From assembly GCA_044225175.1 (NCBI GenBank), contig JBGAJA010000001.1, positions 206,114-270,113 on the forward strand: DNA of 64,000 nt. The letters run 5' to 3'. The notes under the pieces are model-generated. The model had not been told where the DNA came from. It saw only the letters and a list, made by a program, of their open reading frames with translations, and made no database searches. How positions within the stretch are numbered: the stretch's first letter is position 1; the number at the start of each line of letters is the position of its first letter. Below, piece after piece: positions 5,863-43,611 of the stretch. The stretch comes from Candidatus Omnitrophota bacterium. Lineage in GTDB: Bacteria; Omnitrophota; Gorgyraeia; Zapsychrales; Fredricksoniimonadaceae. Both the position numbers and the translations under genes were made by a program.

Positions 5863-8800
5863 ATGAGAAATATATTAAGGCTTACTGTATCGATCTTATT
5901 TTATTTTGTTCTAATTTCTACTGTTGTCTATGCAGAAGATCTTACAAGGTTTGTTCTTTCCAGTAGTAAGCAATCAGAAATTCAAAGTCCTTTCGAAAAT
6001 AAGATAATCCCTTTCTCAAAAGCAATTGAACCTAAGTATCATGCCAATCGTGTGTTAGTGAAATTTAGAGATGGTAATTTCGATACTCGAACACAGATTG
6101 AGAATTATTTAAAACCTACCTTAAATGCAACGGTTAAGCGATTATTTGTTCGAGATGAGTCTACGTTGGCTGCCAAGAATTTCTTAATTGAGAAATCCAC
6201 CAAAGCATTAAAAAATAAAAATTTTTCTCCAATTGCTTCAATAAATGGACCAGAGGTCCTTGCTAACTGGTATATTCTAGAATTACCCAAGGACACGAAT
6301 GTTCAAAGTGTTATTAATCAATTAAAAAAGGATGCTAATGTTGAAGCTGTTGAAGTTGATCAAACAATGAAAGCTGCCTCTATTCCTAATGATCCGATGT
6401 ATCCTCAACTTTGGGCCATGCCTAAAATCCATGCAGATGCTGCCTGGGATATTACTCAAGGTGAGGGTGTTATTATTGCCGAGGTAGATATGGGAATTGA
6501 TTATAATCATCCCGATCTTGCTGCCAGTATGTGGACTAACCCTGAAGATGGAAGCCATGGATGGAATTTTATCGACAACAATAACATGCCTTTGGATGAC
6601 GGTAGTTATGGTATAGCTGGTCATGGTACCTTTGTTGCTGGAATCATGGCTGCAACTATCAATAATAATATAGGAGTGGTAGGGATTGCGCCAAAATCCA
6701 AACTTATGGCGATAAAGGCATTGGATACATATGGTCAGGGAGATGTTTCAAATATAGCTAATGGAATTGTTTATGCTGCCATGAATGGAGCTAAGGTTAT
6801 TAACAATAGCTGGGAATGCCCAAATGGATGTGAAAGTGCACATATTCCTGTTTTGGAAGATGCCATACGAGTGGCTTATGGGATGGGAGTGACGATTGTT
6901 GTTTCAGCAGGTAATCATGAATCCGACACCAAGAATTTTAATCCCCAGAACATGGTAGAAACAATAAAAGTGGCAGATACCGATATCAATGATCAAAGAG
7001 GTCTATATTCTAATTATAGTGACCAAATGGATGTTGCTGCTCCAGGAGAACATATCTTTTCTACCTTTCGTAATAATGGTTATACCGTTGGAGATGGGAC
7101 ATCTTTTTCCGCACCACTTGTATCTGGATTAGCTGCGTTGATTTTGTCTGTGCACCCAAATTTTACGAATGAGCAAGTTAGACAGGTGATCCGGATGTCT
7201 GCAGATGACATTTTGGCTCCTGGCTGGGATAAAGAGTCGGGATTTGGCCGTATCAATGCAATCAAGGCTCTTAATATTCAGGATATTTGTACAGCTCAGA
7301 TTCAGTCTATTACACCTGTCGATGGTTCAAACAATACAAAGTTTCAAATCAATTATTCTGTCACTGGACAGAATTTTTCATCGTATAAAATTTCAAAGAA
7401 GGGAGAGGGGGATTCAAGCTGGGTCGATATCTATTCATCTCATGCGCCAATCCTAAATGGAAAAACAACCCTACCTCTTTCTGCTAGTTTTATTGGAACT
7501 TTAATCAGAGTTCAAGGAGTAGGATCAAATAATCAAAAATGTGAAGATATTAACATGATACGACATCCAAGTGTCCGTTTTACCTACCCTTTAGATAAAG
7601 GATATATCACAAATGACACTGTAGACATTAGAGGTAAGATTACCGGGGACAATTTTTCTGAATATCAATTAATGGTTGATAACAATATTGTTTTAGATCA
7701 TCAAAAGACTCCGGTTAATGACGGCATCATTGGTCAGGTCAATGCTGCTCAGCTAGATCCTTCTGTCGCCCACACGCTGACATTAAATGTCAAAACTAAA
7801 CAAGGAACCGTCATTACTCAAAAGATTAATGTTAAAGTCATTCCAAATAATGTTCATGGATGGCCTATGCAATTAAGTTCTGAATTCTATGGATTACTAT
7901 ATCCTCACTTTGCTGTCATTTCTCCCATTGTGAGTGATATCGATTTAGATGGTAAGAAAGATGTTGTCACAGCAGGTTTAAATAATTGGCCTCCTTATGG
8001 GACGACGGTAGCTATTAATGCCGATGGGACCCTGCGTTCTGGTTGGCCTGCTCCACTACAGGGAACAATTGTAAGTGTTGGTAATGTTACAGGAGATGCA
8101 AAGCTGGAAACCGTGGTCGTTTCAATTCCAGATTGGAATCTTCCAATACATTTAGCTTCCTTGTATGTCCTTGATCAGCAAGGCCATGTTTTGCCGGGCT
8201 GGCCAAAGGATTTAGGCACTAGTCCATTTTTTAGTTCATTGATGGTTACAGATCTAGATAAGTCTGGCTTAAGTAAGATTATTGTAGGAAAAATTAGAAG
8301 TCCTTCTCAGGGCACCGAAGAGATTGATGTTTTTAATGGAGATGGGACAATGGCTCAAGGGTGGCCTAAGGTATTAACTACTCTTACTGGGTCGGTTAAT
8401 CTTGTATTGGCAGTTGGAGACATTCTGGGTGATGGTAATAAAGAAATAATATCAGCAGATAAAAACTCTCCTTATGATCCACCACCTCAGGAAATTATTA
8501 GGATTTTTGATGCTTACGGGAATCAATTAAATACGATTACTTTTGAAGGGAACTTACAGACTCAAATTGTATTAGGAGATATTGATCATGATGGCCATAA
8601 AGAGATTATTTTTGGGGCTCATACTTCTCCAGGGGTAGCCAAGATTTATGTATTAAGACCAGATGGCTCATCTTTGCCTGGTTTTCCAGTTCAACTACCT
8701 AATAATCTTAAATATCCTTCAGGAATAGCCTTAGGTGATTTTGATGGAAATGGAATGCTGGGAATTGTTATTCAAACACGAGATATTAGTTCTAATAGTT

Positions 8801-9273
8801 CTCGCAATGCGCTGATTGTATTTGATCATAATGGTCAAATCAGATCAGGATGGCCGTTTATTTGGCCAACGCAACCAAAGGCTTATGGAGGAACCCGCCT
8901 AGCCGTAGGGGATATTAATGGAGATGGTCGCACAGATATTTTGGCGTTACAAGATTACACTAATAGTGTAGGGCTTTATGCATGGGACGATCATGGTACA
9001 GTTTTATCAGGATTTCCTTTGTCCTTAGGTAGTCAATACGCACCATGGGGGCCATCATTAACTGATTTAAATAATGACAGAAAGATTGATATTCTTCTTT
9101 CTGATGCAAATGGTGAGATTTGGGCGTATAGTCCATTTAAAGCTAATTTCGATCCAAGAAAGATCTATTGGCCACAAGATGGTTTTGACGCCGGCCATAC
9201 ATATGATTTTGAATTACCCTCCAAGATTAAACCCATAGCTAGGAAACAAAACTGCCACGGCTCTAATTGCTAA
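5863..9273 (+). CDS. Secreted subtilisin-like serine peptidase (S8) with C-terminal FG-GAP/VCBS-like repeat β-propeller region
   Basis: Signal peptide. Catalytic triad motifs DMGIDYNHPDL (Asp), HGTFVAGIMAA (His) and GTSFSAPLVSGLAAL (Ser). The C-terminal ~500 aa carries repeated GDxDGDG/GDINGDG calcium-binding-like motifs. Confidence 0.8.
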   Translation: MRNILRLTVSILFYFVLISTVVYAEDLTRFVLSSSKQSEIQSPFENKIIPFSKAIEPKYHANRVLVKFRDGNFDTRTQIENYLKPTLNATVKRLFVRDESTLAAKNFLIEKSTKALKNKNFSPIASINGPEVLANWYILELPKDTNVQSVINQLKKDANVEAVEVDQTMKAASIPNDPMYPQLWAMPKIHADAAWDITQGEGVIIAEVDMGIDYNHPDLAASMWTNPEDGSHGWNFIDNNNMPLDDGSYGIAGHGTFVAGIMAATINNNIGVVGIAPKSKLMAIKALDTYGQGDVSNIANGIVYAAMNGAKVINNSWECPNGCESAHIPVLEDAIRVAYGMGVTIVVSAGNHESDTKNFNPQNMVETIKVADTDINDQRGLYSNYSDQMDVAAPGEHIFSTFRNNGYTVGDGTSFSAPLVSGLAALILSVHPNFTNEQVRQVIRMSADDILAPGWDKESGFGRINAIKALNIQDICTAQIQSITPVDGSNNTKFQINYSVTGQNFSSYKISKKGEGDSSWVDIYSSHAPILNGKTTLPLSASFIGTLIRVQGVGSNNQKCEDINMIRHPSVRFTYPLDKGYITNDTVDIRGKITGDNFSEYQLMVDNNIVLDHQKTPVNDGIIGQVNAAQLDPSVAHTLTLNVKTKQGTVITQKINVKVIPNNVHGWPMQLSSEFYGLLYPHFAVISPIVSDIDLDGKKDVVTAGLNNWPPYGTTVAINADGTLRSGWPAPLQGTIVSVGNVTGDAKLETVVVSIPDWNLPIHLASLYVLDQQGHVLPGWPKDLGTSPFFSSLMVTDLDKSGLSKIIVGKIRSPSQGTEEIDVFNGDGTMAQGWPKVLTTLTGSVNLVLAVGDILGDGNKEIISADKNSPYDPPPQEIIRIFDAYGNQLNTITFEGNLQTQIVLGDIDHDGHKEIIFGAHTSPGVAKIYVLRPDGSSLPGFPVQLPNNLKYPSGIALGDFDGNGMLGIVIQTRDISSNSSRNALIVFDHNGQIRSGWPFIWPTQPKAYGGTRLAVGDINGDGRTDILALQDYTNSVGLYAWDDHGTVLSGFPLSLGSQYAPWGPSLTDLNNDRKIDILLSDANGEIWAYSPFKANFDPRKIYWPQDGFDAGHTYDFELPSKIKPIARKQNCHGSNC

Positions 9274-12370: not shown

Positions 12371-13450
12371 ATGATGTTATTTGTGATTCTTGGGATGATT
12401 GTAGTGGTTGCGACCGGCGTTCTAGGTTTTCTTTTTTATTTACTTAATAAAGAGTCTTCGGAAACTACACAGAAGGTAGTTTCTGCTCATGAATTAAAAT
12501 CTTTACAACCATCGATCAAATCACAATCTCAAGAAATTGTTTTAGGTGATTTTGTGGAAACTCCTAAAGAAGTCTTAGTCGAAGCAAGGCTTACCCAAGA
12601 GTTTTCTTTAAAAGAAGAAGCTTATGAGCAAAAGGTCAAAGAATTAGAGGGAGAGTTGAATTCTATAGCGACCAAGGCCCAAGAACAAAATCAACAAGCG
12701 ATAGCTTCCATTGACCAATTAAAAAAAGAAAATGAACAAATAAAAACACAAAGTACGATTGAGATTGTGGCTGCCAAAGCAGATTTGATTAAAGCAGAAC
12801 AGGCGATCGAAAGCATGAGAGAAGAACAGATTTCTTTGGGTAATCGTTTAAATGAGAGTCAGATCCAAATAGGTAAATTACAAGATGAAGCGCTCGCCAT
12901 ACGTCATCAAATGGGCCAAGAAATAAGTAAGACAAAAGAAGAAGCGGAGAATTTAGTTATTGAGAATGAAACATTGAAGAAATCTTTAGAAGCAGGAATT
13001 GAAGAGGCGGGAAGGACTTTTAAGGAGAGCATTTCATCGTTACAGGAAGAAAATCAAACATTAAGAAATGCAGCTCAAGATTTAACTATGACTAATCAAA
13101 AGCTCAAGGAACTCAATAGTCATCTGATTGAAAAGTCTGAAAAATTGCAGTGGGAATTGACTAAGGCCAGGGCGCAGATGACAAGCTTTGAGCGAGCTTG
13201 CGAAAATTATCAAAATCAACTTCAAGGTGCTTTTGATCGCAGTGGTTCAATTGAAAAGAATGTTTCTAGTTTAAGTGACACAAATAATCGTCTTCAGCGT
13301 TTCTTAGATGATTTGCAGAAACAAAATGAAGAACTCGCCAAGCGTGAGAAGTTGTTTGAGTATGAATTAGAAAAAAATCGTACCCAGATAGTTTCCCTTG
13401 AACGAGACAATGCCAGTTTAAAAGCAAGTATTCAAACTGACAAATCCTAG
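12371..13450 (+). CDS. Membrane-anchored long coiled-coil protein
   Basis: One N-terminal transmembrane helix, then ~300 aa of E/K/Q-rich heptad-like sequence. Confidence 0.55.
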   Translation: MMLFVILGMIVVVATGVLGFLFYLLNKESSETTQKVVSAHELKSLQPSIKSQSQEIVLGDFVETPKEVLVEARLTQEFSLKEEAYEQKVKELEGELNSIATKAQEQNQQAIASIDQLKKENEQIKTQSTIEIVAAKADLIKAEQAIESMREEQISLGNRLNESQIQIGKLQDEALAIRHQMGQEISKTKEEAENLVIENETLKKSLEAGIEEAGRTFKESISSLQEENQTLRNAAQDLTMTNQKLKELNSHLIEKSEKLQWELTKARAQMTSFERACENYQNQLQGAFDRSGSIEKNVSSLSDTNNRLQRFLDDLQKQNEELAKREKLFEYELEKNRTQIVSLERDNASLKASIQTDKS

Positions 13451-13459
13451 GGGCAGATA

Positions 13460-14131
13460 ATGAGAAAGATGAATTTGGTTTTAATAATTTTGGTTCTTGG
13501 GTTTTGTGGCTGTGCTGGATTGGTAGATCTTCCTAAAACTCTATGGGGTTCTTCGACGCGTGTCTTGGAAGAAGCTCGAAACAATGCTATTTCTAAAACA
13601 TATGATAAGGGATATTGGGATTGTATTAGATCAGCCGTCAATGTTTTAAATGAGAAGGGTTATATTGTTTTTAAGAAAGATGAAGTCAGGGGTGTTTTTA
13701 TTGTGATGGGAATTCCTGGTGCTGTGGATACGACGGAGGTTGGAATATTTTTTGTTGAAATCAATGATCATCAGACAAGAATTGAACTTGCTTCTTTGAG
13801 CACTAATGCCAAAAGGCTTTTATCGAGACCATTCTTTCATGCCATGGACATTGCTTTTGGTTTAGCTCCTCCTGATGCAGATATGATGGTTGCTAAAACG
13901 AAGTTCTTAGATTTGGGTCCTCGAGGAGAAGATATTTATAAATATTTAATCGAAAAGGGGTGTTTGGTGGAAGTTTCAACCACAGAAGCCCGTATTAAAA
14001 AGGATGCTAAATTTATCAAAGAAGATTTGCGTGAGAAATTCTCGGAAGATTTAGATAAGATTTTGTCTGTTTTTGAGAATGCCAAATATCCAGTAAAAAC
14101 AGAGGTTAAAACAATAGACACTAAGTTATGA
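13460..14131 (+). CDS. Secreted or lipoprotein-like hypothetical protein
   Basis: N-terminal signal peptide (LVLGFCGCAG). No recognisable domain. Confidence 0.5.
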   Translation: MRKMNLVLIILVLGFCGCAGLVDLPKTLWGSSTRVLEEARNNAISKTYDKGYWDCIRSAVNVLNEKGYIVFKKDEVRGVFIVMGIPGAVDTTEVGIFFVEINDHQTRIELASLSTNAKRLLSRPFFHAMDIAFGLAPPDADMMVAKTKFLDLGPRGEDIYKYLIEKGCLVEVSTTEARIKKDAKFIKEDLREKFSEDLDKILSVFENAKYPVKTEVKTIDTKL

Positions 14132-14637
14132 TTGAGAATGAGTTCTTATTCTTAGGATTACTCGCTGAAGGTCCCAAACATGGCTATGAGATTAAACGCC
14201 AAATCGAACAAGAATTAGTCCCTGCCATTGGTTTACAGATCAAATCAATTTATTATCCTCTTCAAAAAATGGAAGAAGAAGGTTTGATTGAAAATGAAGT
14301 AGGGCGCCAAGGACGTTTTCCTCAGAAAAATATTTATCGCATCACTCCTAAAGGAAAGAAGAAATTTGAAGATTTGATCAGTAAGAGTTTTGTTGCTGTG
14401 GAAAGGCCCTATTTTCAAATTGATTTGTCTTTGTATTTCTTACCATTGATTGATCCAGCTTTAGCTAAAAAACGTCTTAGAACACGACTAGCTATTTTAA
14501 AACGTATCCGCAAAGATTTACTCACTCTTCAGAAAAACTCTTCCCAAACAAAGCCCTTAGGTCTGATTTTATCCCATGATATTGATCTTGTTGAAGCTGA
14601 AATATCTTCAATTAACAAGGTGATTGTTCAAATTTAA
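14128..14637 (+). CDS. PadR-family transcriptional regulator
   Basis: GPKHGYEIKRQIE...IYYPLQKMEEEGLIE is a winged-helix PadR signature. Confidence 0.7.
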   Translation: MIENEFLFLGLLAEGPKHGYEIKRQIEQELVPAIGLQIKSIYYPLQKMEEEGLIENEVGRQGRFPQKNIYRITPKGKKKFEDLISKSFVAVERPYFQIDLSLYFLPLIDPALAKKRLRTRLAILKRIRKDLLTLQKNSSQTKPLGLILSHDIDLVEAEISSINKVIVQI

Positions 14638-14690: not shown

Positions 14691-17600
14691 ATGTTAAATA
14701 GTATAAAGGATATCCCTTATATAGCCCTGGTGGTTCTCTGTGCCTTTATGGGCAATTTTTTGTGTCCTTTAGAGGCATATGCAGACGATGGACTCCATTT
14801 ACCTAGTCCAGGTCAAATATTAGAATCCAGTCCCAATTTTTCTCCTGTCTTGCTCAAGGGATTGACTATTGATCCCAAGAATCCATTTGCTTTTGATTTC
14901 ATTGTGGATTCGGGTGATTCTGGATTATCCGTAGAGACGCAAGATTTTGCGTCTCTACAAGACGAATCAAAGAAATTAATCAAATATTTCCTCGCCTCTT
15001 TAACGACCCCTGAAGATGATCTATGGGTGAATTTATCCCCTTATGAGAAGAACCGTATAGTTCCTGAGAACTTTGGCCAAACGCAAATGGGAAGAGATTT
15101 ATTGGCCCAGGACTATATTTTAAAACAATTAACAGCTTCTTTGATTTATCCCGAGAAAGATCTAGGTAAAAAGTTTTGGGAAAAAGTTTATAAAAAAGCC
15201 CAAGCCCAATACGGCACAACCCAAGTCCCTATAAATACATTTAATAAAGTCTGGATAATTCCAGATAAAGCCTCTGTTGTTGAATACAAAGGCACAATAT
15301 TGATTCAAGAAAGACATTTGAAGGTGATGTTGGAGGAGGATTATTTAGCAGTGGAGAAACATAATTCTGATAAGAATGGGGCGAATTCAATAGGAAATGA
15401 AATCATCCGCCAAATCATCCTCCCTGAAATCGAAAAAGAAGTCAATGAAGGCAAGAATTTCGCCAATCTCCGCCAGATCTACAGCGCTATGATTTTAGCG
15501 ACATGGTTTAAGGTGAGACTCAAAGAAAGTCTTTTAGGAAAATTTTATGTGAATCAAAATAAAATTAAGGGAATTGATCTAGGAGATAAAAGTGCAAAAC
15601 AGAAGATTTATGACCAGTATTTAGAAACTTTTAAGAAAGGTGTTTATAACTATATCAAGGAGGATCATGACCCTATTACCCACCAATCTATTCCTAGAAA
15701 ATATTTTTCAGGAGGATTTGAGGCAGGAAAGAATTTAGCCATGTTGATTAAAAATAATTCTAGGGTTGTGCCATCTATAGATTTTGCTTCATTGTCTAGG
15801 GCAGATAAGGCCAGTTTAAATGAAGTGGCAGAAAATCATCAGGGGAATGTCTCGATTGTTCAGGCAAGATTAGAACAGCCTCACCCAATAACAAAAGTAA
15901 AACAAATTGAAACCGCTCAAGTAATGGGTTTTTTATTATCCAAATGGGGGATTCGTCAAATACTTAAAGGGGGAAAAATTAAGCATCCTGATTGGTTTAT
16001 TGTTTTTAAAGAGGATCAAGAAGAGCTAAGGGAGAGAATGATCGCAGCTTCTACTTTTGGTCCATTATTAGATGATAGAGATGTTAGGGATTTTAGAGAA
16101 ATAGCCCAACAGATTGTCTCTGGAAATATTAATTTACCCGTTGTTTATAAACCACATTTTGGCTCTTTAGGTAGACGGATTTTTTACATTCATAAAGGCG
16201 AAGGATCTGATTTAATTATTACTTTTGCTTATACGGATTCTACAGGAGTTTCTCCAGGAACCCAAAGACAGGTTATAGGGTATTTTGAAGGATATGGAAT
16301 TCTTCCTATCCTTGATAAGGACAATCAAAATATTATGCAATTTGTCATAGATGCAGCAAATGCAAACGCGGTAGATGTTTTATGTGGATTATGGAGACTC
16401 AATTCTTCTGTTGAATCCCGATATGATTTAGGAGGAATGGAGTCCTATATTGATGCATTTAAATTGAAAGGAATGTCTTATGAAAGCCGATTTATATTTA
16501 GGGGTAATTTTCAAACAGGTCAATTCATCCCAACGCCCAATGATCCTGATCAAGATGCATCCTGGATCCAAGACACTCGTATAGGAAGTTCTGAGTTTTT
16601 TTCTAATAACCGGGGGCGCCCACGATCAGAGGCATTAGTTGGCTCAAACAGGTATGAAGCCGTATTACAAAAATATGACATAGACCCCAGTCGTTGGGAA
16701 GAGTTTCAAGCTTATGTCTATGAACTCATTGAACATGATTTTAAATTAATAGTTTCTCGTTTAAATGCTGTGGGAATTCATTTAAATATGAACGTGAGAG
16801 GAAATTTTGATCTGATGTGGCTTCCTCCAGAAAAGAGAGGAGAATTTCCGGTTCCTGTATTGATCGAGACTCATTTTTTCTTTGAACCATCTGAAAATTG
16901 GGAGAAATATTTAAGTGTTGACTCTAATTTTGATGGCAAGTGGCAGGATGCAGCCATGGCGAATAGGGAAATACATGCAAGGTTTGAGGTTTATAACGAT
17001 AATGACTCTTGGTTTATTAAACTACCTTGGGGAAATAAATTTAATTTGGCGGAGGGATCATTTAGAAGGTTTTTGAAAGAAATTGGTGTGGATGTCCTTA
17101 GCTATGAGAGTAATGATGTAGAAAAATATTTTCGGCTTAGCTATCAGGGAAAAGAAAGAATTATTAAGTATGGAATAAATGAGCCGGCTGAGAAAGTGGG
17201 TTTGGAATTCTCAAGAATTATTTCGCCCGCGTTAATCAATTTAAGATTTCAACAGTTTGCTGCCAATGGATTTGACAATATTACTGTGAAGCAATGGATA
17301 TTACTTGGGTATGAAGCATTGAGTCCTGATTTTATAGAATTGATTGATGTAGATATCATGGAATCCATGCTTAAAAAAATTTTATCTATGAAAGAGGATC
17401 CTCAAAGAAGAGGAGATGTTTTTTATTGGGCCCATCAATTGTATGAAAGGGTCTTTGCTTTAGATATTCAAAATATGCTAGAGGAATCTGAATTTGTTAA
17501 CAAAGAACACAATAAGAAATTGTTAAGAATCCGTCAAGAAGTCAGACGGTTATATTTAGGAATTAGTATTGCTAATGAAGAGAGATTCATCAAATCATTA

Positions 17601-19496
17601 CAAAATATAGAATCATTTCAGGGGATCGATCGTGTGATTTCACAATGGGTTGCAGATAGACAACAAGATACAGTGGAGCAGATTATTTTTAATATTAGAA
17701 AGATCTTTCTATATCATATTTTCAAAAGGACCTCACATGATGACATGTCACATTTACTTCAAGTTGTTGAATCTTTAAAGCGCGAGATTAATAGAGATCT
17801 TTATAAGTTGCAGGACATGAATGATATGTACGCTCTCGGTTTTATCCATGAACTCTTGGGCCGAGATTTATATGGAAATAAAGGTGATCTTTCATTGCAA
17901 TTATATAAAAACAGCTTGATTCTTACCACTGAAGAGAGGGAAGATTTATTAAAGTATCGAAAGAGAGTATTTTCTTCAATGTCTCGTTTGCGTGCAAATT
18001 CAGAACTAAGAAAAACTATTAAACAAGAGAAGCTTGATAAGAAAGAGGATCCACCAGAGACTTCATATGATCTTGAATTTGATGGGAAGATTGATATTTT
18101 TATGAATAACAATGACTTGAAAGTAAAGGTGCGCTCTACCGGAGATATCTTTGACCTTCAATCGGATGAGTTTGAAGCATATTTAAGTAAAAATGGTCTA
18201 TATTTTTCAGGAGAGTGGAAGTCGAATAATGAATTACATTGGGATTTAAGGCTCTATGGGGAAAATGAATCTCATTTATTGACTTGGAAAATGAATATTG
18301 ATGTAAAAGATTTAACAAATTTATTTAACAATCTGCTTAGCGAATCTAAGCCTATACTAGTTGTTAAGGATTTTATTTTGCATGGTTGGCAGGGTGATGA
18401 AATTAAATATGCTCAACGCCTGACATGGGCAGTCGAAAAACTTCTTCGTTGGCAAGGCAAAGACCAATCAGAGATTTTGGCGCACCTGACATTGATTGAC
18501 CAAGTATTCACTAAAATAAAAATGCTCGGTTCGAATAAAAGAGTTTTATTAAAGGGTAGAGCTATATTTTGGGATGAAATGAAAACTATTTTTACTTCTC
18601 CATATTATCTAGGCAGGACTGGAGAAATTGTTCAGGAAGAAGAAATGCCTAGAAATAGTGTTATTGAAGCTCTCAAACATAGCGACCGAAGTGTCAATTT
18701 AAAAATTCAGAAACTAAAGCGAAAAGCATTTAATGAATTCAATTTAGTGAAATTATTTCAATCTGGTTTGAGTCCTGATCGATTAGATCAAGAATTCCAT
18801 GAGCATTTGAAAGAGGCAAGTCCTGTAGATATGTTGAATATTTTGGAAAACTGGTATGTCAAGCAGCCATTAAAAGGCGTAGACTTAGTGATAGAGTTTA
18901 TTTATTATTCAAGAAAAGCAGTTGTCTTATCAGAGATTCTTAAAGAAATTTCATCTAAGGAGGAAGTCTGGGATAAATTTCATAATGATTATAGTCGTAT
19001 TATGCACGTCTTGTTAGATAATATTTCCCATCAAATTATTCGCTCAAATGACATTCCTACTTTTGAAGAAGCTTATGAACGGATGCACAAAGATATTGAA
19101 GACTTTCCTGATTCTATTTTTGCCAATAGCTATGAATATCAACAGCAAATGAAATCCATAGTAATTAGAATGGAGGATCTAAATACAAAATTCCAGACCA
19201 ATAAGGGTTTTTCTTCTAGTGAAAAAACTGATCAAGCTATGAGAGAATCCACAGTTGACCAATATAGGGAAAAGTTAAAGGAAGGGGAAGCTATATCAAC
19301 TAGAAGTCCTGGTGGTATTGACCTTAATGTCAAACATTTGGACCTTCAGATCAAACGCGATGATAAGGGCATTCCGCTTCCGATTTCCCAGAAACCCTTG
19401 GAAAGTATTCATATTGAGGGGTTTTTTCCTGTTATTATAAAAATTACCCCAGTGGATGATTTACCTGCTTATTTGGGTTTTTTGAGCTCTAAGTAA
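14691..19496 (+). CDS. Giant secreted protein (1601 aa) of unknown function
   Basis: Signal peptide and an uninterrupted 4.8-kb ORF. The central segment VVYKPHFGSLGRRIFYI loosely resembles an ATP-grasp nucleotide-binding strand. No other domain recognised. Confidence 0.6.
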   Translation: MLNSIKDIPYIALVVLCAFMGNFLCPLEAYADDGLHLPSPGQILESSPNFSPVLLKGLTIDPKNPFAFDFIVDSGDSGLSVETQDFASLQDESKKLIKYFLASLTTPEDDLWVNLSPYEKNRIVPENFGQTQMGRDLLAQDYILKQLTASLIYPEKDLGKKFWEKVYKKAQAQYGTTQVPINTFNKVWIIPDKASVVEYKGTILIQERHLKVMLEEDYLAVEKHNSDKNGANSIGNEIIRQIILPEIEKEVNEGKNFANLRQIYSAMILATWFKVRLKESLLGKFYVNQNKIKGIDLGDKSAKQKIYDQYLETFKKGVYNYIKEDHDPITHQSIPRKYFSGGFEAGKNLAMLIKNNSRVVPSIDFASLSRADKASLNEVAENHQGNVSIVQARLEQPHPITKVKQIETAQVMGFLLSKWGIRQILKGGKIKHPDWFIVFKEDQEELRERMIAASTFGPLLDDRDVRDFREIAQQIVSGNINLPVVYKPHFGSLGRRIFYIHKGEGSDLIITFAYTDSTGVSPGTQRQVIGYFEGYGILPILDKDNQNIMQFVIDAANANAVDVLCGLWRLNSSVESRYDLGGMESYIDAFKLKGMSYESRFIFRGNFQTGQFIPTPNDPDQDASWIQDTRIGSSEFFSNNRGRPRSEALVGSNRYEAVLQKYDIDPSRWEEFQAYVYELIEHDFKLIVSRLNAVGIHLNMNVRGNFDLMWLPPEKRGEFPVPVLIETHFFFEPSENWEKYLSVDSNFDGKWQDAAMANREIHARFEVYNDNDSWFIKLPWGNKFNLAEGSFRRFLKEIGVDVLSYESNDVEKYFRLSYQGKERIIKYGINEPAEKVGLEFSRIISPALINLRFQQFAANGFDNITVKQWILLGYEALSPDFIELIDVDIMESMLKKILSMKEDPQRRGDVFYWAHQLYERVFALDIQNMLEESEFVNKEHNKKLLRIRQEVRRLYLGISIANEERFIKSLQNIESFQGIDRVISQWVADRQQDTVEQIIFNIRKIFLYHIFKRTSHDDMSHLLQVVESLKREINRDLYKLQDMNDMYALGFIHELLGRDLYGNKGDLSLQLYKNSLILTTEEREDLLKYRKRVFSSMSRLRANSELRKTIKQEKLDKKEDPPETSYDLEFDGKIDIFMNNNDLKVKVRSTGDIFDLQSDEFEAYLSKNGLYFSGEWKSNNELHWDLRLYGENESHLLTWKMNIDVKDLTNLFNNLLSESKPILVVKDFILHGWQGDEIKYAQRLTWAVEKLLRWQGKDQSEILAHLTLIDQVFTKIKMLGSNKRVLLKGRAIFWDEMKTIFTSPYYLGRTGEIVQEEEMPRNSVIEALKHSDRSVNLKIQKLKRKAFNEFNLVKLFQSGLSPDRLDQEFHEHLKEASPVDMLNILENWYVKQPLKGVDLVIEFIYYSRKAVVLSEILKEISSKEEVWDKFHNDYSRIMHVLLDNISHQIIRSNDIPTFEEAYERMHKDIEDFPDSIFANSYEYQQQMKSIVIRMEDLNTKFQTNKGFSSSEKTDQAMRESTVDQYREKLKEGEAISTRSPGGIDLNVKHLDLQIKRDDKGIPLPISQKPLESIHIEGFFPVIIKITPVDDLPAYLGFLSSK

Positions 19497-19618
19497 GTTT
19501 GTAACCTTCAATTTCTGAAGTGTTTATCTCTCCAAAGTTTTCCTTGATAAATCCCAATCCTGTACTAAAATCACACTATTAAAATTTTACTAGTAGGGCA
19601 TGATTCATCATGCCCTGA

Positions 19619-21157
19619 TTGGGTTTGATGAATCAAACCCCTACAATTATGGACATTTACTCAATTCTACAACAATCGGCCAATCGTTTTGCCGGCAAAC
19701 CTGCGGTAATATTTAAGGATCAGACCCTATCCTTTGCTGACCTTAAATCCAAGGTTTTTCAGCTGTCCCATGGGTTGGCTGGTTTAAATGTTCAAAAATC
19801 CACCAAAATAGGCTTATTTTTACCCAATTCCCCAGAATACATTTATAGTTATTTAGCTTCCTTTTGTTTAGGGGCAACGGTTATTCCATTAGATTTTATG
19901 CTTAAAGCTGATGAGCTTATTTCTTGCCTGTCTCATTCTGAAACTGAAATTCTGATTGCCTGTAAGAACCCTTCCGTAGATTTTGCTCAACTCAAAGAAA
20001 ATATTCCCACACTACAGAAGATCATTGTTTTAGGAGAAACAGAAGCGGTCAATTGGCAAGTGCCGTTTTATGCTTTAATGACAAGTGAGGGCTTCACTAA
20101 AGCACAGGTTAGCCCAACAGACCCTTGTATGATTATGTATACTTCTGGTACGACGGGAAAACCTAAAGGCATTCTTCTCAACTACAGGCATCTCGATGGA
20201 TCTCCGGAAGCCATGCATCACTTTGTAGATTTAAGTGAACGAGATACGAAGCTTTGTGCCATTCCTTTTAGCCATATTGGTGGCTTTGTCTATATTCAAA
20301 ATTGCATTTTATTTGGGATCACTTTGGTTGTGATGGACAGGTTTCATCCGCTAGAGTTCCTCAAGAATGTTGTGCAATACAAAGTCACTTGCTTTCATAT
20401 TGTTCCCCCCATGTACACCGCTTTACTGACCCTTAAAAATATTGATCAATTTGATTTAACTTCTCTTAGATGGGTGGTTGTCTTTGGTGCGCCAAGTTCT
20501 CCAGATATCTTGGAGCGTTTTCATAAATATTGTCCTAATGCTAAGCTGCTCAATGGCTGGGGTATGACAGAAACATGTCCGCCAAACACAGTCACACCTT
20601 TGGATAATCCAAAGATTGAAAGTGTTGGAAAACCTGCTCCAAATTGTGAGATTAAAATTGTTGATGACAGCGACGGAGAACTTGCTCAAGGAGGGGTTGG
20701 AGAAATCGTCATTCGCGGCTGGGTTGTGATGCAGGAATATTACAAAGATCCAGAGGCTACAGCTTTAGCTAAACGAAACGGATTTTTTCATACGGGAGAT
20801 TTGGGACGATTTGATGAGGATGGACTGCTTTATATTGTAGGACGTAAGAAAGAAATGATTAAGGTGGCTGGACAAATTGTTTTTGCTCCTGAAGTTGAAG
20901 CAGCCCTTTGTAAACATGAAGCAGTTCTTGAAGTGGCAGTCATTGGGGTGCCAGACAAGATGCGAGGTGAAGCGGTTAAAGCATTTGTAGTGCTTAAGGA
21001 AGGATTTTCTTTAGATCCATTAGAAATCAAATATTTTGCTAAAGAACATTTAGCTAATTTTAAGGTTCCCCACACTATAGAAATTCGTTCCAGTTTACCA
21101 AAGAATAGAACAGGCAAGATTGATAAAGAATCGTTAAAACAAGAAGTCACAGTTTAG
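19619..21157 (+). CDS. AMP-dependent synthetase/ligase (acyl-CoA ligase family)
   Basis: AMP-binding motif YTSGTTGKPKG and C-terminal ...GKIDK. The start may instead be the ATG at 19631. Confidence 0.8.
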   Translation: MGLMNQTPTIMDIYSILQQSANRFAGKPAVIFKDQTLSFADLKSKVFQLSHGLAGLNVQKSTKIGLFLPNSPEYIYSYLASFCLGATVIPLDFMLKADELISCLSHSETEILIACKNPSVDFAQLKENIPTLQKIIVLGETEAVNWQVPFYALMTSEGFTKAQVSPTDPCMIMYTSGTTGKPKGILLNYRHLDGSPEAMHHFVDLSERDTKLCAIPFSHIGGFVYIQNCILFGITLVVMDRFHPLEFLKNVVQYKVTCFHIVPPMYTALLTLKNIDQFDLTSLRWVVVFGAPSSPDILERFHKYCPNAKLLNGWGMTETCPPNTVTPLDNPKIESVGKPAPNCEIKIVDDSDGELAQGGVGEIVIRGWVVMQEYYKDPEATALAKRNGFFHTGDLGRFDEDGLLYIVGRKKEMIKVAGQIVFAPEVEAALCKHEAVLEVAVIGVPDKMRGEAVKAFVVLKEGFSLDPLEIKYFAKEHLANFKVPHTIEIRSSLPKNRTGKIDKESLKQEVTV

Positions 21158-21169
21158 AAAGGGTTTGAT

Positions 21170-21949
21170 ATGTCAACTACAACAGTCGATCGCATGACAA
21201 GAGATGTTCATTTAAGCGGAAAAGATTTAATGGCTATGGTGCAATTAAGACCGCAAGATGTTGGAACTTATGCGATTGTTCCTGGGCCAAAAGAAAGGCT
21301 AGATAGCGTCGTAAAGAAGATGGAAAATCCTGTGAAGAATTTCACCTTCATGGAATACAGCATGTATACCGGCTTGATTAATGGAACAAAGATTACTGCA
21401 ATTAATGGTGGGCGTTTTGGTGCTGATACCGCGATCACAACAGAAATTTTGTGTAGTGCTCAAACCAAAGCTTTAATCCGTATTGGTAGCTGTGGTGCTC
21501 TTCGTAAAGATATTAAAATTGGCGATTTCATTGTTGCAACCGGATGCGTTCGTGGAGACGGTGTTTCTCCTTATTATGTTGAAAAAGATTTTGTCACTTT
21601 ACCTGATCCAGGGTTAACTGCAAAGTTAACAGCTATTGCTAAAGCTTCAGCTGCAACAGCTGGGATGAGTGTTCATGAAGGAAAAGTTTGGTCAACGGAT
21701 GCAATTCTCAAAGAAACCAAAGAAATTGTAAACGGTGTCATTGATCAAGGTGCAATTGGTGTAGACATGGTCAGCTCTACATTTTTAACAATCGCTCAAA
21801 CATATAAGATTCCTGCCGTATCCATCTTGGCAGTTTCAGATAATTTAATCACAGGTCAAATGGGCTTTATTAATCCTGACTATTACATGGCTGAGGGAAT
21901 GCTTATCCAAATGGCATTAGAATTAGTCAAGCAAATGGAAGGTAAATAA
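21170..21949 (+). CDS. Purine/MTA nucleoside phosphorylase, DeoD type (PNP_UDP_1 family)
   Basis: IVPGPKERL, IRIGSCGALRKDIKIGDFIVATG and GVDMVSS...ILAVSD are collinear with DeoD. Sits upstream of mtnA and mtnB. Confidence 0.7.
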   Translation: MSTTTVDRMTRDVHLSGKDLMAMVQLRPQDVGTYAIVPGPKERLDSVVKKMENPVKNFTFMEYSMYTGLINGTKITAINGGRFGADTAITTEILCSAQTKALIRIGSCGALRKDIKIGDFIVATGCVRGDGVSPYYVEKDFVTLPDPGLTAKLTAIAKASAATAGMSVHEGKVWSTDAILKETKEIVNGVIDQGAIGVDMVSSTFLTIAQTYKIPAVSILAVSDNLITGQMGFINPDYYMAEGMLIQMALELVKQMEGK

Positions 21950-22917
21950 TGTTTGAATCTCCGTTGTTCTGGCCAGCACACTGGCAAGATAAAACTTTAA
22001 TGGTTTTGGATGAAACTTTAATTCCAGGAAAATTGAAATACATTCCGGTCAAGAATCTTAAGGATGCGGTGGAAGTTATTAAGACTATGAAGACTAGAGC
22101 TTTTGGTCAATTCTTAGTCGTCTTAAATGCCTTTTCTTTAGAAATCCATCGAGCGGGTACTAAGTCGAAATTTGATCTAAAGCATGTTCAAGAAATTGCA
22201 GATGCTTTAAACAATTCGCGGCCCACATTTCCATTTTCGGAAGTAACTGCAATTATTGTGGGGTCAGCACAAAAAGCTTCCACACATGGTGCGGATGTGA
22301 AGACAGCTGTTCAAAAGACGATTGAAGGATTTTTACAAGGCATTCGTCATCGCCGTATGGAGCGTGTTCGACAATTGGCAGCAAGTATTCAAGATGGTGA
22401 TCACATTTTGACGCATTGCAATGTCTCGGGCGAACTTGCTATGGCATGTGCTATAGCTAAAGCAGAAGGCAAAAAAGTTCATGTTTTTGCGACGGAGACT
22501 CGTCCTTATTTGCAAGGAGCAAAGTTAACTGTATGGGAATTACAAGAAGCTAAAATAGGAGTCACGCTAGTTGCTGATAATGTGGTTGGGTCTTTGATGT
22601 CGGAGGGAATGGTCAATAAGGTTGTAATTGGTTCTGATCGTTCTGCTGCAAATGGAGATATTGCAAACAAAATTGGATCATACCAAATTGCATTATTAGC
22701 TAAAGAGTTTGGTATTCCACTCATTGCATTAACTCAACCATCTAACAAAGTTCCAAATGGAAAAAGCATTCCTATTGAACAACGTTCAGGTCATGAAGTT
22801 GTGAACTTTGAACGTAAACGTTTGTTTCCTGCAGGGGCAGAAGGATATTATCCTGGATTTGACATCGTCCCTCATGAATTAATCAAGAAAGCGATCTCGA
22901 TCAATGCTGGAATTTAA
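21949..22917 (+). CDS. mtnA: S-methyl-5-thioribose-1-phosphate isomerase (eIF-2B α/β/δ-like)
   Basis: THCNVSGELA...ATETRPYLQGAKLTVWEL...IGSDRSAANGDIANKIGSYQIAL matches the MtnA consensus. Confidence 0.75.
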   Translation: MFESPLFWPAHWQDKTLMVLDETLIPGKLKYIPVKNLKDAVEVIKTMKTRAFGQFLVVLNAFSLEIHRAGTKSKFDLKHVQEIADALNNSRPTFPFSEVTAIIVGSAQKASTHGADVKTAVQKTIEGFLQGIRHRRMERVRQLAASIQDGDHILTHCNVSGELAMACAIAKAEGKKVHVFATETRPYLQGAKLTVWELQEAKIGVTLVADNVVGSLMSEGMVNKVVIGSDRSAANGDIANKIGSYQIALLAKEFGIPLIALTQPSNKVPNGKSIPIEQRSGHEVVNFERKRLFPAGAEGYYPGFDIVPHELIKKAISINAGI

Positions 22918-23377
22918 AGATAACTCAATTGTGCTTCTTCATGGTGTTTTTACCGAAGGAGCATTAGCCAAAATTAAACATAAAGGTGGAGCTCGTTTAG
23001 TCATATCAGAAGGGCGACCAACTCTTCGTGCGGGCGAGCACAATAGCCGATATTTCTTATCAAAGAAGCTTAAGCCTATTATTATCTGCGACAATATGGC
23101 AGGATCTTTATTTTTTAACGGCTATGTTAAAGAAGTAGTTTTAGCCTGCCAGTATGCTGACAAAACGGGGGCATTATGTGATATGGGTGCACTTATTTTA
23201 GCTGTACTTGCTAAGAAACATAAGGTTGCAATCCGTCTACTTGAAGGTGAACATAAGAAGCATTTCTTAGGTAATCCAAAAGATTTGTTATCGCTCAAAG
23301 GTTCTCCTACGGCATCAGCTAACACGCATGCTTATGCACCGTTAGTGGAATGGGTTCCGATTAAGTATTTTAAATAG
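22904..23377 (+). CDS. N-terminally truncated eIF-2B/MtnA-like paralog
   Basis: 157 aa that align to residues ~150–270 of the adjacent MtnA (VISEGRP..., IICDNMAGSLF...). The N-terminal domain and the C-terminus are missing. Overlaps mtnA by 14 nt in a different frame. Confidence 0.45.
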   Translation: MLEFKDNSIVLLHGVFTEGALAKIKHKGGARLVISEGRPTLRAGEHNSRYFLSKKLKPIIICDNMAGSLFFNGYVKEVVLACQYADKTGALCDMGALILAVLAKKHKVAIRLLEGEHKKHFLGNPKDLLSLKGSPTASANTHAYAPLVEWVPIKYFK

Positions 23378-24405
23378 TGGGGATTATGAAAGAACAACTC
23401 AAACAAGAAATCATTCGTATCGGTAAATTGCTCTGGGATAAGGGGCTGGTTTTTGGGTTTAATGGAAACATTTCTCAGCGCATCGATGTAAATACTGTAC
23501 TCATTACAGCGACAGGGACTTGCTTAGGATATTTGACTGAAAAAGATATCATCACAATGGATCTTGATGGAAAGGTTATTGGCGAAGGGAAAGCATCCAG
23601 TGAAAGATTGATGCATACAGCGATTTACAAATCCTTGCCTAATATCCAATGCGCGCTTCACACGCATACGACATATACCAATGGTTTTTTCTTAAGCAAT
23701 GATCGCTTCACACCTAAAACATTTGAAGCCCAGTTTTATTTAGGAGAAGTTAAGGCAATTGCTCAGTCAACACCTTCTGTGACAGAGCCTGCTCCTGTTG
23801 TGGAGGCGTTGAAAGCAAACAACATCGTTGTTCTTAAGAACCATGGTGTAGTTAGCGTCGGGGACAATCTTTTTAATGCTTTTGTTTTGATTCAGGAATT
23901 AGAAGAGCAAGTTAAGATGGATTTGGTTGATGTTCATTATAGAGGAGAATCATCAAAACCTCTACAAAGCAGCGTGCACTGCGGAATGGCTGAGGACTTA
24001 ATCAATAAGGGAGCTTCAGCGTCTACGAAGAAATACAAATTATTCTCTAATGAACAGATCGCCGAGATCGTCAAATTAGTCAACTCTGATCCTCAAATGC
24101 AAGAACTTGGAACCAAGACAGCCATGAATATGGACTTAGCCGTATGTCTTCAGGAAACAGGAGACACGCATAGTTTTAAATTTCAAAATGGCAAGATCAT
24201 CGAGACAGCTCATGATGCCAATGCCGAATTTTTAATTACAGCCAATGAATCAATTTGGCGTGCCGTGTTTAATCGTGAGATCGATCCATTTGTCGCAACG
24301 ACTCAAAAGAAAATGAGTCTACGAGGAGATTTTGCCCGTATCTCTAAATGGTATGCGCCATGCAGCCGCATCTTTCAATTATGGACTAACGTCCCGGTGG
24401 AATAG
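23377..24405 (+). CDS. mtnB: Methylthioribulose-1-phosphate dehydratase-like class II aldolase fused to a C-terminal SCP2-like domain
   Basis: N-terminal class II aldolase/adducin motifs (FGFNGNISQRI, HTHTTYTNGF). The C-terminal ~110 aa resemble a sterol-carrier-protein-2 fold. Confidence 0.6.
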   Translation: MGIMKEQLKQEIIRIGKLLWDKGLVFGFNGNISQRIDVNTVLITATGTCLGYLTEKDIITMDLDGKVIGEGKASSERLMHTAIYKSLPNIQCALHTHTTYTNGFFLSNDRFTPKTFEAQFYLGEVKAIAQSTPSVTEPAPVVEALKANNIVVLKNHGVVSVGDNLFNAFVLIQELEEQVKMDLVDVHYRGESSKPLQSSVHCGMAEDLINKGASASTKKYKLFSNEQIAEIVKLVNSDPQMQELGTKTAMNMDLAVCLQETGDTHSFKFQNGKIIETAHDANAEFLITANESIWRAVFNREIDPFVATTQKKMSLRGDFARISKWYAPCSRIFQLWTNVPVE

Positions 24406-38445: not shown

Positions 38446-39989
<1,544 letters not shown>

Positions 39990-40180
39990 TATTCTATTAC
40001 AGGATAGAAACGAAAATTTCATCGTCAACGAAATGTTTAAGCATAATAAGTAAATCAAGATCTTCTCTTTGAAGTTCTTGGCTTTCAAAAATTTTAGAAC
40101 TGCTCGTTGAAACAATGAGCGATCATTGTTTCAACGGGTTTGTTTTCCAAGTGGTCAATCCACTGGCTAAGCCGTATAAC

Positions 40181-40254
40181 GGGCCCGTAGCTCAGATGGT
40201 TAGAGCGCGTCCCTGATAAGGACGAGGTCAGTGGTTCGATCCCCCTCGGGCCCA
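40181..40254 (+). tRNA. tRNA-Ile (anticodon GAU)
   Basis: Cloverleaf GGGCCCGTAGCTCAG...CTGATAA... in the 16S–23S spacer. CCA is not encoded. One U·C mismatch in the T-stem. Confidence 0.85.
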
Positions 40255-40264
40255 TTTATTTCGA

Positions 40265-40341
40265 GGGGCCGTAGCTCAGTTTGGTAGAGCGCCTGCTTTG
40301 CAAGCAGGAAGTCAAGAGTTCGATCCTCTTCGGCTCCACCA
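40265..40341 (+). tRNA. tRNA-Ala (anticodon UGC)
   Basis: GGGGCCGTAGCTCAG...TTTGCAA... with the G3:U70 identity pair. CCA is encoded. Confidence 0.9.
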
Positions 40342-40472
40342 TTTTTTATACGGACTAAATGAATGAACAATAGATGTTAAGCATAGATTTGGATCTCGTT
40401 ACTGACGAGATCGACATGCTCTTTGACAATTATGAAATATAGGGTAATACAATTTCGAGTAGTTTTCGTGTT

Positions 40473-43431
<2,959 letters not shown>

Positions 43432-43488
43432 TATATTAAAATTTGCTTGGGTTGAATTATCCTATATTTCATAATTGTCGTTATCTAT

Positions 43489-43603
43489 TGCGGTAACATT
43501 ACTTGTGGGGCAACACCCGTTCCCTTTCCGAATACGGAAGTTAAGTCCACAGAGGTCGATGGTACTGTAGTCGCAAGGCTATGGGAGAGTAGAACGTTAC
43601 CGC
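43489..43603 (+). rRNA. rrf: 5S ribosomal RNA
   Basis: Terminal helix GCGGTAAC.../...GTTACCGC. Conserved CCGAATACGGAAGTTAAG and GAGAGTAGAACG. Confidence 0.9.
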
Positions 43604-43611
43604 TTTTCTTT

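Follow-up and report, generated by a model that had tools for sequence, protein, structure and literature searches.

A 4.8-kb gene from a bacterium of the phylum Omnitrophota encodes a mosaic protein rather than a single novel unit: two conserved modules occupy its ends, and the variable cargo between them consists here of an ATP-grasp domain and about 800 amino acids (aa) without detectable relatives. The gene lies at 14691..19496, on the plus strand, of a 64,000-nucleotide stretch of DNA (hereafter the window) from Candidatus Omnitrophota assembly GCA_044225175.1 (contig JBGAJA010000001.1, positions 206,114 to 270,113). It is the largest open reading frame (ORF) of the window, starts with ATG and encodes 1601 aa; the products next in size have 1136 and 757 aa. 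An earlier note on this DNA, drawn up from the letters alone, had already singled it out as a real gene and the largest one, and the two peptides quoted there were located in its product, LSPYEKNRIVPENFGQTQMGRDLLAQDYILKQ at about aa 115-146 and VVYKPHFGSLGRRIFYIHKG at aa 484-503.

Searches of the whole protein against Pfam-A (2025) and NCBIfam (2026) returned nothing under E = 0.05, Tandem Repeats Finder gave 0 rows for the gene, and self-BLAST of aa 761-1540 returned the self match alone. The silence of standard domain libraries and the lack of obvious repeats, both announced in the earlier note, were thereby borne out. Matches of aa 736-1539 to SidC_lipid-bd (Pfam E 0.057, 13.8 bits against a cut-off of 27) and matches to GldL and GlfT1 (E about 0.1) were taken as chance. 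The GC content of the gene is 0.353, against 0.395 ± 0.027 for the other genes of the window; since this is only about 1.5 standard deviations lower, composition gives no sign of foreign origin.

Conserved ends and exchangeable cargo

A search of 5.8 billion proteins revealed at least 4,362 protein clusters matching the 1601-aa protein at E ≤ 1e-3. The matching proteins were 900-2,800 aa long, yet only 19-27% of the query was covered. BLAST alignments fell into two blocks, one at aa ~10-345, present in 119 of 119 listed homologues with 50-63% identity, and another at aa ~1540-1597, aligned in 117 of the 119. The corresponding N-module (14793..15725, plus strand; aa 35-345, ~310 aa) and C-module (19308..19481, plus strand; aa 1540-1597, ~58 aa, ending 4 aa before the protein does) are the hallmarks of what we call the bookend family. 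When hidden Markov models (HMMs) of both modules were applied to 120 listed proteins, the N-module came first and the C-module last in every one, with 371-2,286 aa (median 1,242) between them and 0-68 aa (median 26) after the C-module; across the family the cargo ranges from about 370 to more than 3,000 aa.

Conservation within the modules is strong. The N-module contains 65 invariant columns, among them those of the motifs WVNLSPYE, QDYxLKQ, TFNKxWI, LRQ and RKYxSGG, which in the 1601-aa protein include WVNLSPYE, TFNKVWI, LRQIY and RKYFSGG. Its invariant residues include Ser116, Lys145, Lys186 and several Asp/Glu, and no invariant His or Cys. The C-module of the protein is given as GGIDLNvkhLDLQIKRDdkGiPLPisqkPlesihIeGFfPVIIkItPvddLPayLG, and the family consensus as GGIDLNpalLdLQIKRDgnGvPLP..qQpi..m.I.GF.PvIInitP..nlP.lLG. 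It had no match in Pfam or NCBIfam, and aa 1500-1601 gave chance-level matches only at E ≤ 1. With a signal-peptide-like segment followed by the N-module, a terminal C-module, and a variable cargo in between, the 1601-aa protein shows every trait of the family, and its bookend architecture and membership can be regarded as practically certain. The N-terminal region, described beforehand as distinctive but unassigned, is a family-wide module paired with a second one at the far end, which the letters by themselves could not have revealed. The family is apparently undescribed: it has no entry in Pfam 2025 or NCBIfam 2026, and the Omnitrophota papers examined, among which Kizina et al. 2022 was not covered, describe neither the modules and their strictly terminal placement nor the cassette statistics given below.

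The closest relative, P0002 (locus L081, 146-4402), carries a divergent C-terminal variant, EGGIDLTRTKEKIIVSREGQGVQMQFDPAMLERIQREGFDGLEFQIESIVP, and in several other members (L003, L027, L047, L062) the C-module HMM also aligns weakly, and over part of its length, with internal sequence. Together, these two observations hint that the C-module may derive from a repeatable unit.

When one genome for each GTDB species was scanned, at least 578 loci of the family were recovered. Every record naming a phylum was assigned to Omnitrophota/Omnitrophica, and many others were deposited as 'uncultured Planctomycetales bacterium'; likewise, every named organism among the protein-search matches was a Candidatus Omnitrophota/Omnitrophica metagenome-assembled genome (MAG), in agreement with the host from the Planctomycetes-Verrucomicrobia-Chlamydiae group that the sequence alone had suggested. 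As far as the taxonomy of these records goes, the bookend family is a very large paralogous family confined to Omnitrophota. Only 3 of 2.9 million IMG/VR contigs carried an N-module, so the family is not phage-borne. Locus-level counts were taken from the best 80 of the at least 578 loci. There, all 94 ORFs with an N-module had it at residues 2-89, and 51 of the 94 also ended in a C-module; the others mostly leave the edge of the locus or continue in an adjoining ORF with a C-module only. At the edge of their locus, some members are longer than 3,700 aa. A single genome contributed as many as 6 copies within these best 80 loci alone, and 13 of the loci held tandem pairs or triples. Head-to-tail arrays were seen in L042 (1691-20048, three consecutive genes) as well as in L006, L009, L014, L020, L036, L050 and L078. 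Such arrays suggest local duplication and cassette exchange. The 64-kb window holds no second copy. Clustering of neighbouring genes revealed no conserved neighbour across the 80 loci, the recurring ones being generic (receiver/kinase proteins at 19 loci, ABC-F proteins at 10).

The conserved ends enclose unrelated contents. Mean identity was 54% for N-modules and 60% for C-modules, whereas cargo similarity at E < 1e-5 was detected in just 133 of 7,140 protein pairs (1.9%). Cargo is exchanged cassette-like between members. Members P0053 and P0083, encoded on the same 3.36-Mb contig, have N-modules 93% and C-modules 79% identical and enclose unrelated cargo (1553 and 2770 aa), and they offer the clearest case of cargo replacement between conserved ends. 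Among paralogues, the identity of the N-module varies together with that of the C-module (r = 0.43, Mantel p = 0.001). Roughly half of the members lack any Pfam domain; in the remainder, cargo domains include enzymes of central carbon metabolism (phosphoglycerate kinase, triose-phosphate isomerase, GAPDH, enolase, phosphoglucomutase (PGM), glucose-6-phosphate isomerase, aldolases, UDP-glucose pyrophosphorylase, starch synthase, phosphoenolpyruvate carboxykinase, and isocitrate lyase with malate synthase), signalling and regulatory domains (response-regulator receiver, HATPase_c, GGDEF, sigma-54 activator, helix-turn-helix (HTH)), and DnaJ, radical SAM and HEAT repeats.

An ATP-grasp domain within the cargo

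In the 1601-aa protein, a variable linker (15726..15899, plus strand; aa 346-403), at which homologue coverage falls from 119 to 19 and the AlphaFold2 model has a predicted local distance difference test (pLDDT) score below 50, separates the N-module from an ATP-grasp ligase-like domain (15900..16895, plus strand; aa 404-735). Word-indexed searching was too insensitive for this part of the protein: aa 401-1500 retrieved P0002 alone, and the ATP-grasp alignment P0193 alone. By contrast, an exhaustive phmmer search of aa 401-1500 against 1.84 billion representatives gave 81 relatives, 65 of them at E ≤ 1e-10, all confined to aa ~404-770. These relatives are stand-alone proteins of 330-480 aa, one of them labelled as a Woesearchaeota MAG, and also inserts in proteins of 1,400-8,000 aa.

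An alignment of 37 sequences contained six invariant columns, corresponding to K487 (VVYKP), E584, R600 (YESR), G632, D707 (FDLMW) and E726 (LIETH), with G494 nearly invariant. In canonical ATP-grasp enzymes a Lys on the strand before a flexible loop is followed by a hinge Glu, a [DE]xR motif, and an Asp and a Glu on the last two strands. The protein presumably follows this order, with VVYKP-HFGSLGRR for the Lys and loop, GGMES for the hinge Glu, YESRF for [DE]xR, FDLMW for the Asp and LIETH for the Glu. Mapping by motif order and by the strands of the model placed the Asn position of the ExN motif at His728, a position that varies in the family. The top PDB sequence match of the domain profile was TTLL7, at the Lys/Gly-loop (E 0.028), where the K487/Gly-loop segment aligns with the TTLL7 segment IVKPANGAMGHGI. 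Structurally nearest to aa 404-735 are ATP-grasp ligases, namely TTL/TTLL, LysX/ArgX/RimK, the L-amino-acid ligases BacD/RizA and the D-Ala-D-Ala ligase Ddl; the domain differs from these in being only 9-16% identical to solved structures, in not conserving the ExN Asn, and in being embedded in a mosaic protein that bears a signal peptide. It matched neither TTL nor any other curated ATP-grasp Pfam HMM above gathering score, and one homologue came within sub-threshold reach of ATPgrasp_ST/YheCD (E ~0.003, 17 bits against a cut-off of 27-31).

Where a possible ATP-grasp-like strand or nucleotide-binding fold had been suspected, aa 404-735 thus form a complete domain, with a phosphate-binding Lys and a Gly-rich loop (K487, G494), and there is hardly any doubt that it has the ATP-grasp fold. 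It has this fold and most of the catalytic signature, but belongs to no curated ATP-grasp family; it is a new family outside Pfam, of about 80 representative clusters at 50% identity, found in proteins of up to ~8,000 aa. Catalytic activity of the domain is somewhat more likely than not. Because the enzymes nearest to it in structure join amino acids to carboxylates of peptides or proteins, an amino-acid-ligating chemistry is proposed for the domain.

The rest of the cargo (16896..19307, plus strand; aa 736-1539) is a region without detectable homologues, repeats or hydrophobic segments. Searches of aa 401-1500 against 5.8e9 proteins and 1.84e9 representatives gave no match past about aa 770, and alignments of the C-terminal part extended back to about aa 1412-1500 in only a few family members. 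P0002, P0004 and P0046 are the only members in which the N-module is followed by the ATP-grasp part of the 1601-aa protein; the remaining cargo has no homologue. Two fragments bear on the origin of this region. P0174 (213 aa) runs from the end of an ATP-grasp domain through ~80 aa to a C-module, and P0172 (440 aa) from an N-module into the start of an ATP-grasp domain. Their layouts suggest that shorter members consisting of N-module, ATP-grasp domain and C-module probably exist, and the stretch of ~800 aa looks like an extra insertion.

Proposed export and alternative roles of the modules

The N-terminus of the 1601-aa protein is a predicted Sec-type signal peptide (14691..14783, plus strand; aa 1-31), whose n-region contains a single Lys, whose hydrophobic core spans about aa 8-27 and whose putative cleavage site lies between AYA (aa 29-31) and DD. 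Outside the core, no Kyte-Doolittle window of the protein exceeds 1.4, and, having no other hydrophobic segment, the protein would belong to a 'signal peptide only' class. A lipoprotein signal was considered and rejected, as NFLC does not fit a lipobox and its Cys is not conserved. Signal peptides of the protein and of the family were scored by heuristic rule-of-thumb tests rather than a trained predictor, using a sample of 115 members with an LPxPG-like start of the N-module. Upstream of the N-module, 109 of the 115 had a hydrophobic 12-mer, K/R preceded the 12-mer in 109, and 103 had an AxA-like site no more than 14 aa from the N-module, typically PPxYA before Q. The signal peptide proposed from the sequence alone is in this way recovered, and shared by 109 of the 115 homologues. 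These features make export of the 1601-aa protein fairly likely.

We consider it slightly more probable than the contrary that the 1601-aa protein is an exported modular enzyme carrier, in which the conserved ends would be shared handles for sorting, anchoring or delivery, and the ATP-grasp domain together with the ~800 aa without relatives would be the cargo. Sec would carry the protein across the inner membrane, and the signal peptide would be cut after AYA31. The N- and C-modules would serve as common handles by which an apparatus sorts, anchors or delivers all members, or might fold together, the destination being, for example, a surface coat or an attached host or prey cell. The cargo would confer the activity specific to each member; for the 1601-aa protein, this may be the joining of an amino acid or an amine to a carboxylate group of a peptide or protein, wherever ATP is present. 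Taken by itself, a role of the ends as sorting or delivery handles is given somewhat less than an even chance.

Several observations weigh against an exported carrier. Localization is only predicted, on the basis of simple signal-peptide rules. The cargo consists of typically cytoplasmic, cofactor-dependent domains (phosphoglycerate kinase, triose-phosphate isomerase, GAPDH, enolase, receiver, sigma-54 activator, HTH, DnaJ, radical SAM, ATP-grasp), which have no obvious use in the periplasm or outside the cell, since ATP and NAD are lacking there. No secretion-system gene was found within about 15 kb of the gene, where the earlier note had advised looking for one. About a dozen of 38 stand-alone ATP-grasp homologues have a hydrophobic stretch in their first ~30 residues, and the rest, roughly two thirds, do not. 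Homologues without a signal peptide, named in advance as what would overturn a secreted protein, are present among the stand-alone ATP-grasp proteins but rare among the full-length relatives bearing the N-module. The Asn of the canonical ExN Mg site is replaced by a variable residue, as described above. Finally, the model of the N-module is poor (pLDDT 59), so that its lack of resemblance to any known fold is weak evidence.

The cargo would be accounted for by the main rival to export, a scaffold at the cytoplasmic face, which nonetheless contradicts the geometry of the signal peptides. According to this explanation, which we judge unlikely, the protein would be cytoplasmic or tethered to the inner membrane, its N-terminus being an uncleaved anchor or part of the fold, and the modules would assemble enzyme paralogues into an array on the cytoplasmic side (a metabolon or compartment). 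The overwhelmingly cytoplasmic type of the cargo (HTH, sigma-54 activator, receiver, DnaJ, glycolytic enzymes, radical SAM), the lack of a hydrophobic N-terminus in most stand-alone ATP-grasp homologues and the absence of secretion genes nearby all fit it, and the 2026 preprint 10.64898/2026.06.07.730766 reads many Omnitrophota long proteins as anchored in the inner membrane with cytoplasmic content. However, the N-termini of the family are classic, with a positive n-region, a hydrophobic core, a Pro-rich c-region and an AxA site before Q, which predicts an N-in/C-out orientation and cleavage, placing the body of the protein outside the cytoplasm, and there is no second hydrophobic segment that could return the chain to it.

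A polymorphic toxin or adhesin, with an N-terminal trafficking domain and a variable toxic or adhesive payload directed against competitors or prey, is improbable. The conserved N-terminus, cassette-like content, multiple copies and tandem arrays do resemble those of polymorphic toxins such as TANFOR (PMC7073777), and Omnitrophota have been proposed to be predators or parasites (PMC10066038). Nevertheless, polymorphic toxins have their toxin at the extreme C-terminus, which here is a conserved module; Pfam, NCBIfam, self-BLAST and Tandem Repeats Finder detected no toxin, adhesin or repeat domain; the gene downstream encodes an AMP-binding enzyme and not a small immunity-like protein; and the cargo of the family is of the housekeeping type. 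The earlier suggestion of an adhesin or toxin is not supported by these results, nor by the surroundings of the gene, with no secretion-system gene within about 15 kb. An effector role for the 1601-aa protein is possible.

Equally improbable is that the ends form a self-processing or catalytic unit, in which the N- and C-modules fold together and cut, release or covalently attach the cargo to the envelope: the 65 invariant columns of the N-module, the co-variation of N- and C-module identities and the proteolytic processing of Omnitrophota giant proteins proposed by West-Roberts et al. (10.1101/2023.11.21.568195) speak for it, but the idea is purely inferential, neither module resembles any peptidase or transpeptidase, and whole-gene duplication explains the co-variation equally well.

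An exported carrier remains the favored reading, and a more far-reaching version of it, which we advance only as a doubtful possibility, is that the modules mark an undescribed sorting or delivery system common to Omnitrophota, with a new-fold N-module and a C-terminal tag, that would export cargo of the cytoplasmic type, either to a surface coat or into the cytoplasm of a host or prey, and have the 1601-aa protein as its protein- or peptide-ligating ATP-grasp effector. Delivery into an attached host or prey cell would reconcile export with a cargo that requires cytoplasm. It would also fit the predatory or parasitic lifestyle proposed for Omnitrophota in PMC10066038, and the exported multi-enzyme long proteins of the phylum.

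Comparison with known systems would place the 1601-aa protein, by analogy, as an ATP-grasp ligase in a frame like that of cargo of the type IX secretion system (T9SS) or of polymorphic effectors. With T9SS cargo it shares a Sec signal peptide, variable domains and a short C-terminal module common to many otherwise unrelated proteins of one genome. By contrast, its C-module matches no T9SS C-terminal domain model in Pfam or NCBIfam; T9SS cargo comes from another phylum and has no conserved N-module of 310 aa, and no T9SS genes were seen. Polymorphic toxins (TANFOR, Bacteroidetes, PMC7073777) likewise occur in several copies per genome, but the bookend C-terminus is conserved instead of toxic, the cargo consists of metabolic and signalling enzymes, and no immunity gene lies downstream.

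The preprints 10.64898/2026.06.07.730766 and 10.1101/2023.11.21.568195 report long proteins of Omnitrophota that bear signal peptides and have a 'multi-enzyme metabolic cluster' content (PF08323, PGM, PF00072, PF04055); these proteins share with the bookend family the phylum, the signal peptides and a mosaic of cytoplasmic-type domains (starch synthase, PGM, receiver, radical SAM). The Archaeovorins and giants described there differ, being defined by size (more than 10,000 to 30,000 aa), many transmembrane helices, and SecA-like, glycosyltransferase or peptidase content. Measured against the features of a giant according to West-Roberts et al. (a gene above 90 kb, many transmembrane helices, and glycosyltransferase, methyltransferase, peptidase, NUDIX or SecA-like domains), the 4.8-kb gene encodes a protein with one hydrophobic segment and none of those domains. 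That Omnitrophota have long, signal-peptide-bearing multi-enzyme proteins is already known; what appears to be new is the bookend modules, their terminal positions and the cassette statistics.

Genomic setting and significance

The genes around the 1601-aa ORF are of ordinary metabolism and all lie on the plus strand. Upstream are genes for an S8 subtilase with FG-GAP repeats, a DAO oxidoreductase, an epimerase, two hypothetical proteins and a PadR-family regulator (14128..14637; Pfam PadR E 9e-15), the latter ending 53 bp before the start codon and considered as context only. Genes for a 359-aa coiled-coil protein, a 223-aa unknown protein and PadR abut or overlap at 12371-14637 (14128 versus 14131) and may form one transcription unit, which would end 53 bp before the gene. 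Downstream, a spacer of 122 bp leads to the AMP-binding enzyme (19619-21157, plus strand; 512 aa), which is followed by a methionine-salvage-like set at 21170-24405 comprising a methylthioadenosine/purine nucleoside phosphorylase, an IF-2B/MtnA-like isomerase, a 157-aa unknown ORF and an MtnB-like class II aldolase. The spacer contains a terminator-like hairpin (19594..19617, plus strand) found in a consensus scan, whose 10-bp stem includes 5 GC pairs and whose T tract is weak; the region holds 7 such sites, which is not above the level of shuffled sequences (4.3 ± 1.9 expected).

Elsewhere in the window, the second-largest ORF (5863-9273, 1136 aa) encodes the S8 subtilase, which has a fervidolysin-like prodomain and C-terminal FG-GAP repeats; West-Roberts et al. 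(10.1101/2023.11.21.568195) mention S8 peptidase domains in connection with the processing of Omnitrophota giant proteins. A 145-aa ORF at 32547-32984 matches CdiI_3, an immunity protein of contact-dependent inhibition (E 2.9e-19), and no recognisable CdiA-type toxin gene is annotated adjoining it. A complete rRNA operon occupies 38446-43605 (16S at 38446-39988, two spacer tRNAs at 40181-40338, 23S at 40473-43431, 5S at 43489-43605) and is the cause of a rise in GC content to 0.46-0.47 there. Of the ORFs of at least 110 aa, 55 out of 59 are on the plus strand, three of the four on the minus strand lying inside plus-strand ORFs, and GC skew is positive in every 2-kb bin, a combination consistent with a single replichore and a strong gene-strand bias.

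Omnitrophota are uncultured, ultra-small and probably predatory or parasitic, and their large mosaic proteins are a recognised puzzle. The two end modules provide a searchable handle on these proteins, reaching thousands of them and dozens of cargo types, and both merit family definitions in Pfam/InterPro whatever the mechanism. Should the ends turn out to be signals for sorting or delivery, the phylum's entire exported or injected 'enzyme arsenal' would be identifiable from sequence alone, and the question would arise of why ATP- and NAD-dependent enzymes sit behind signal peptides.

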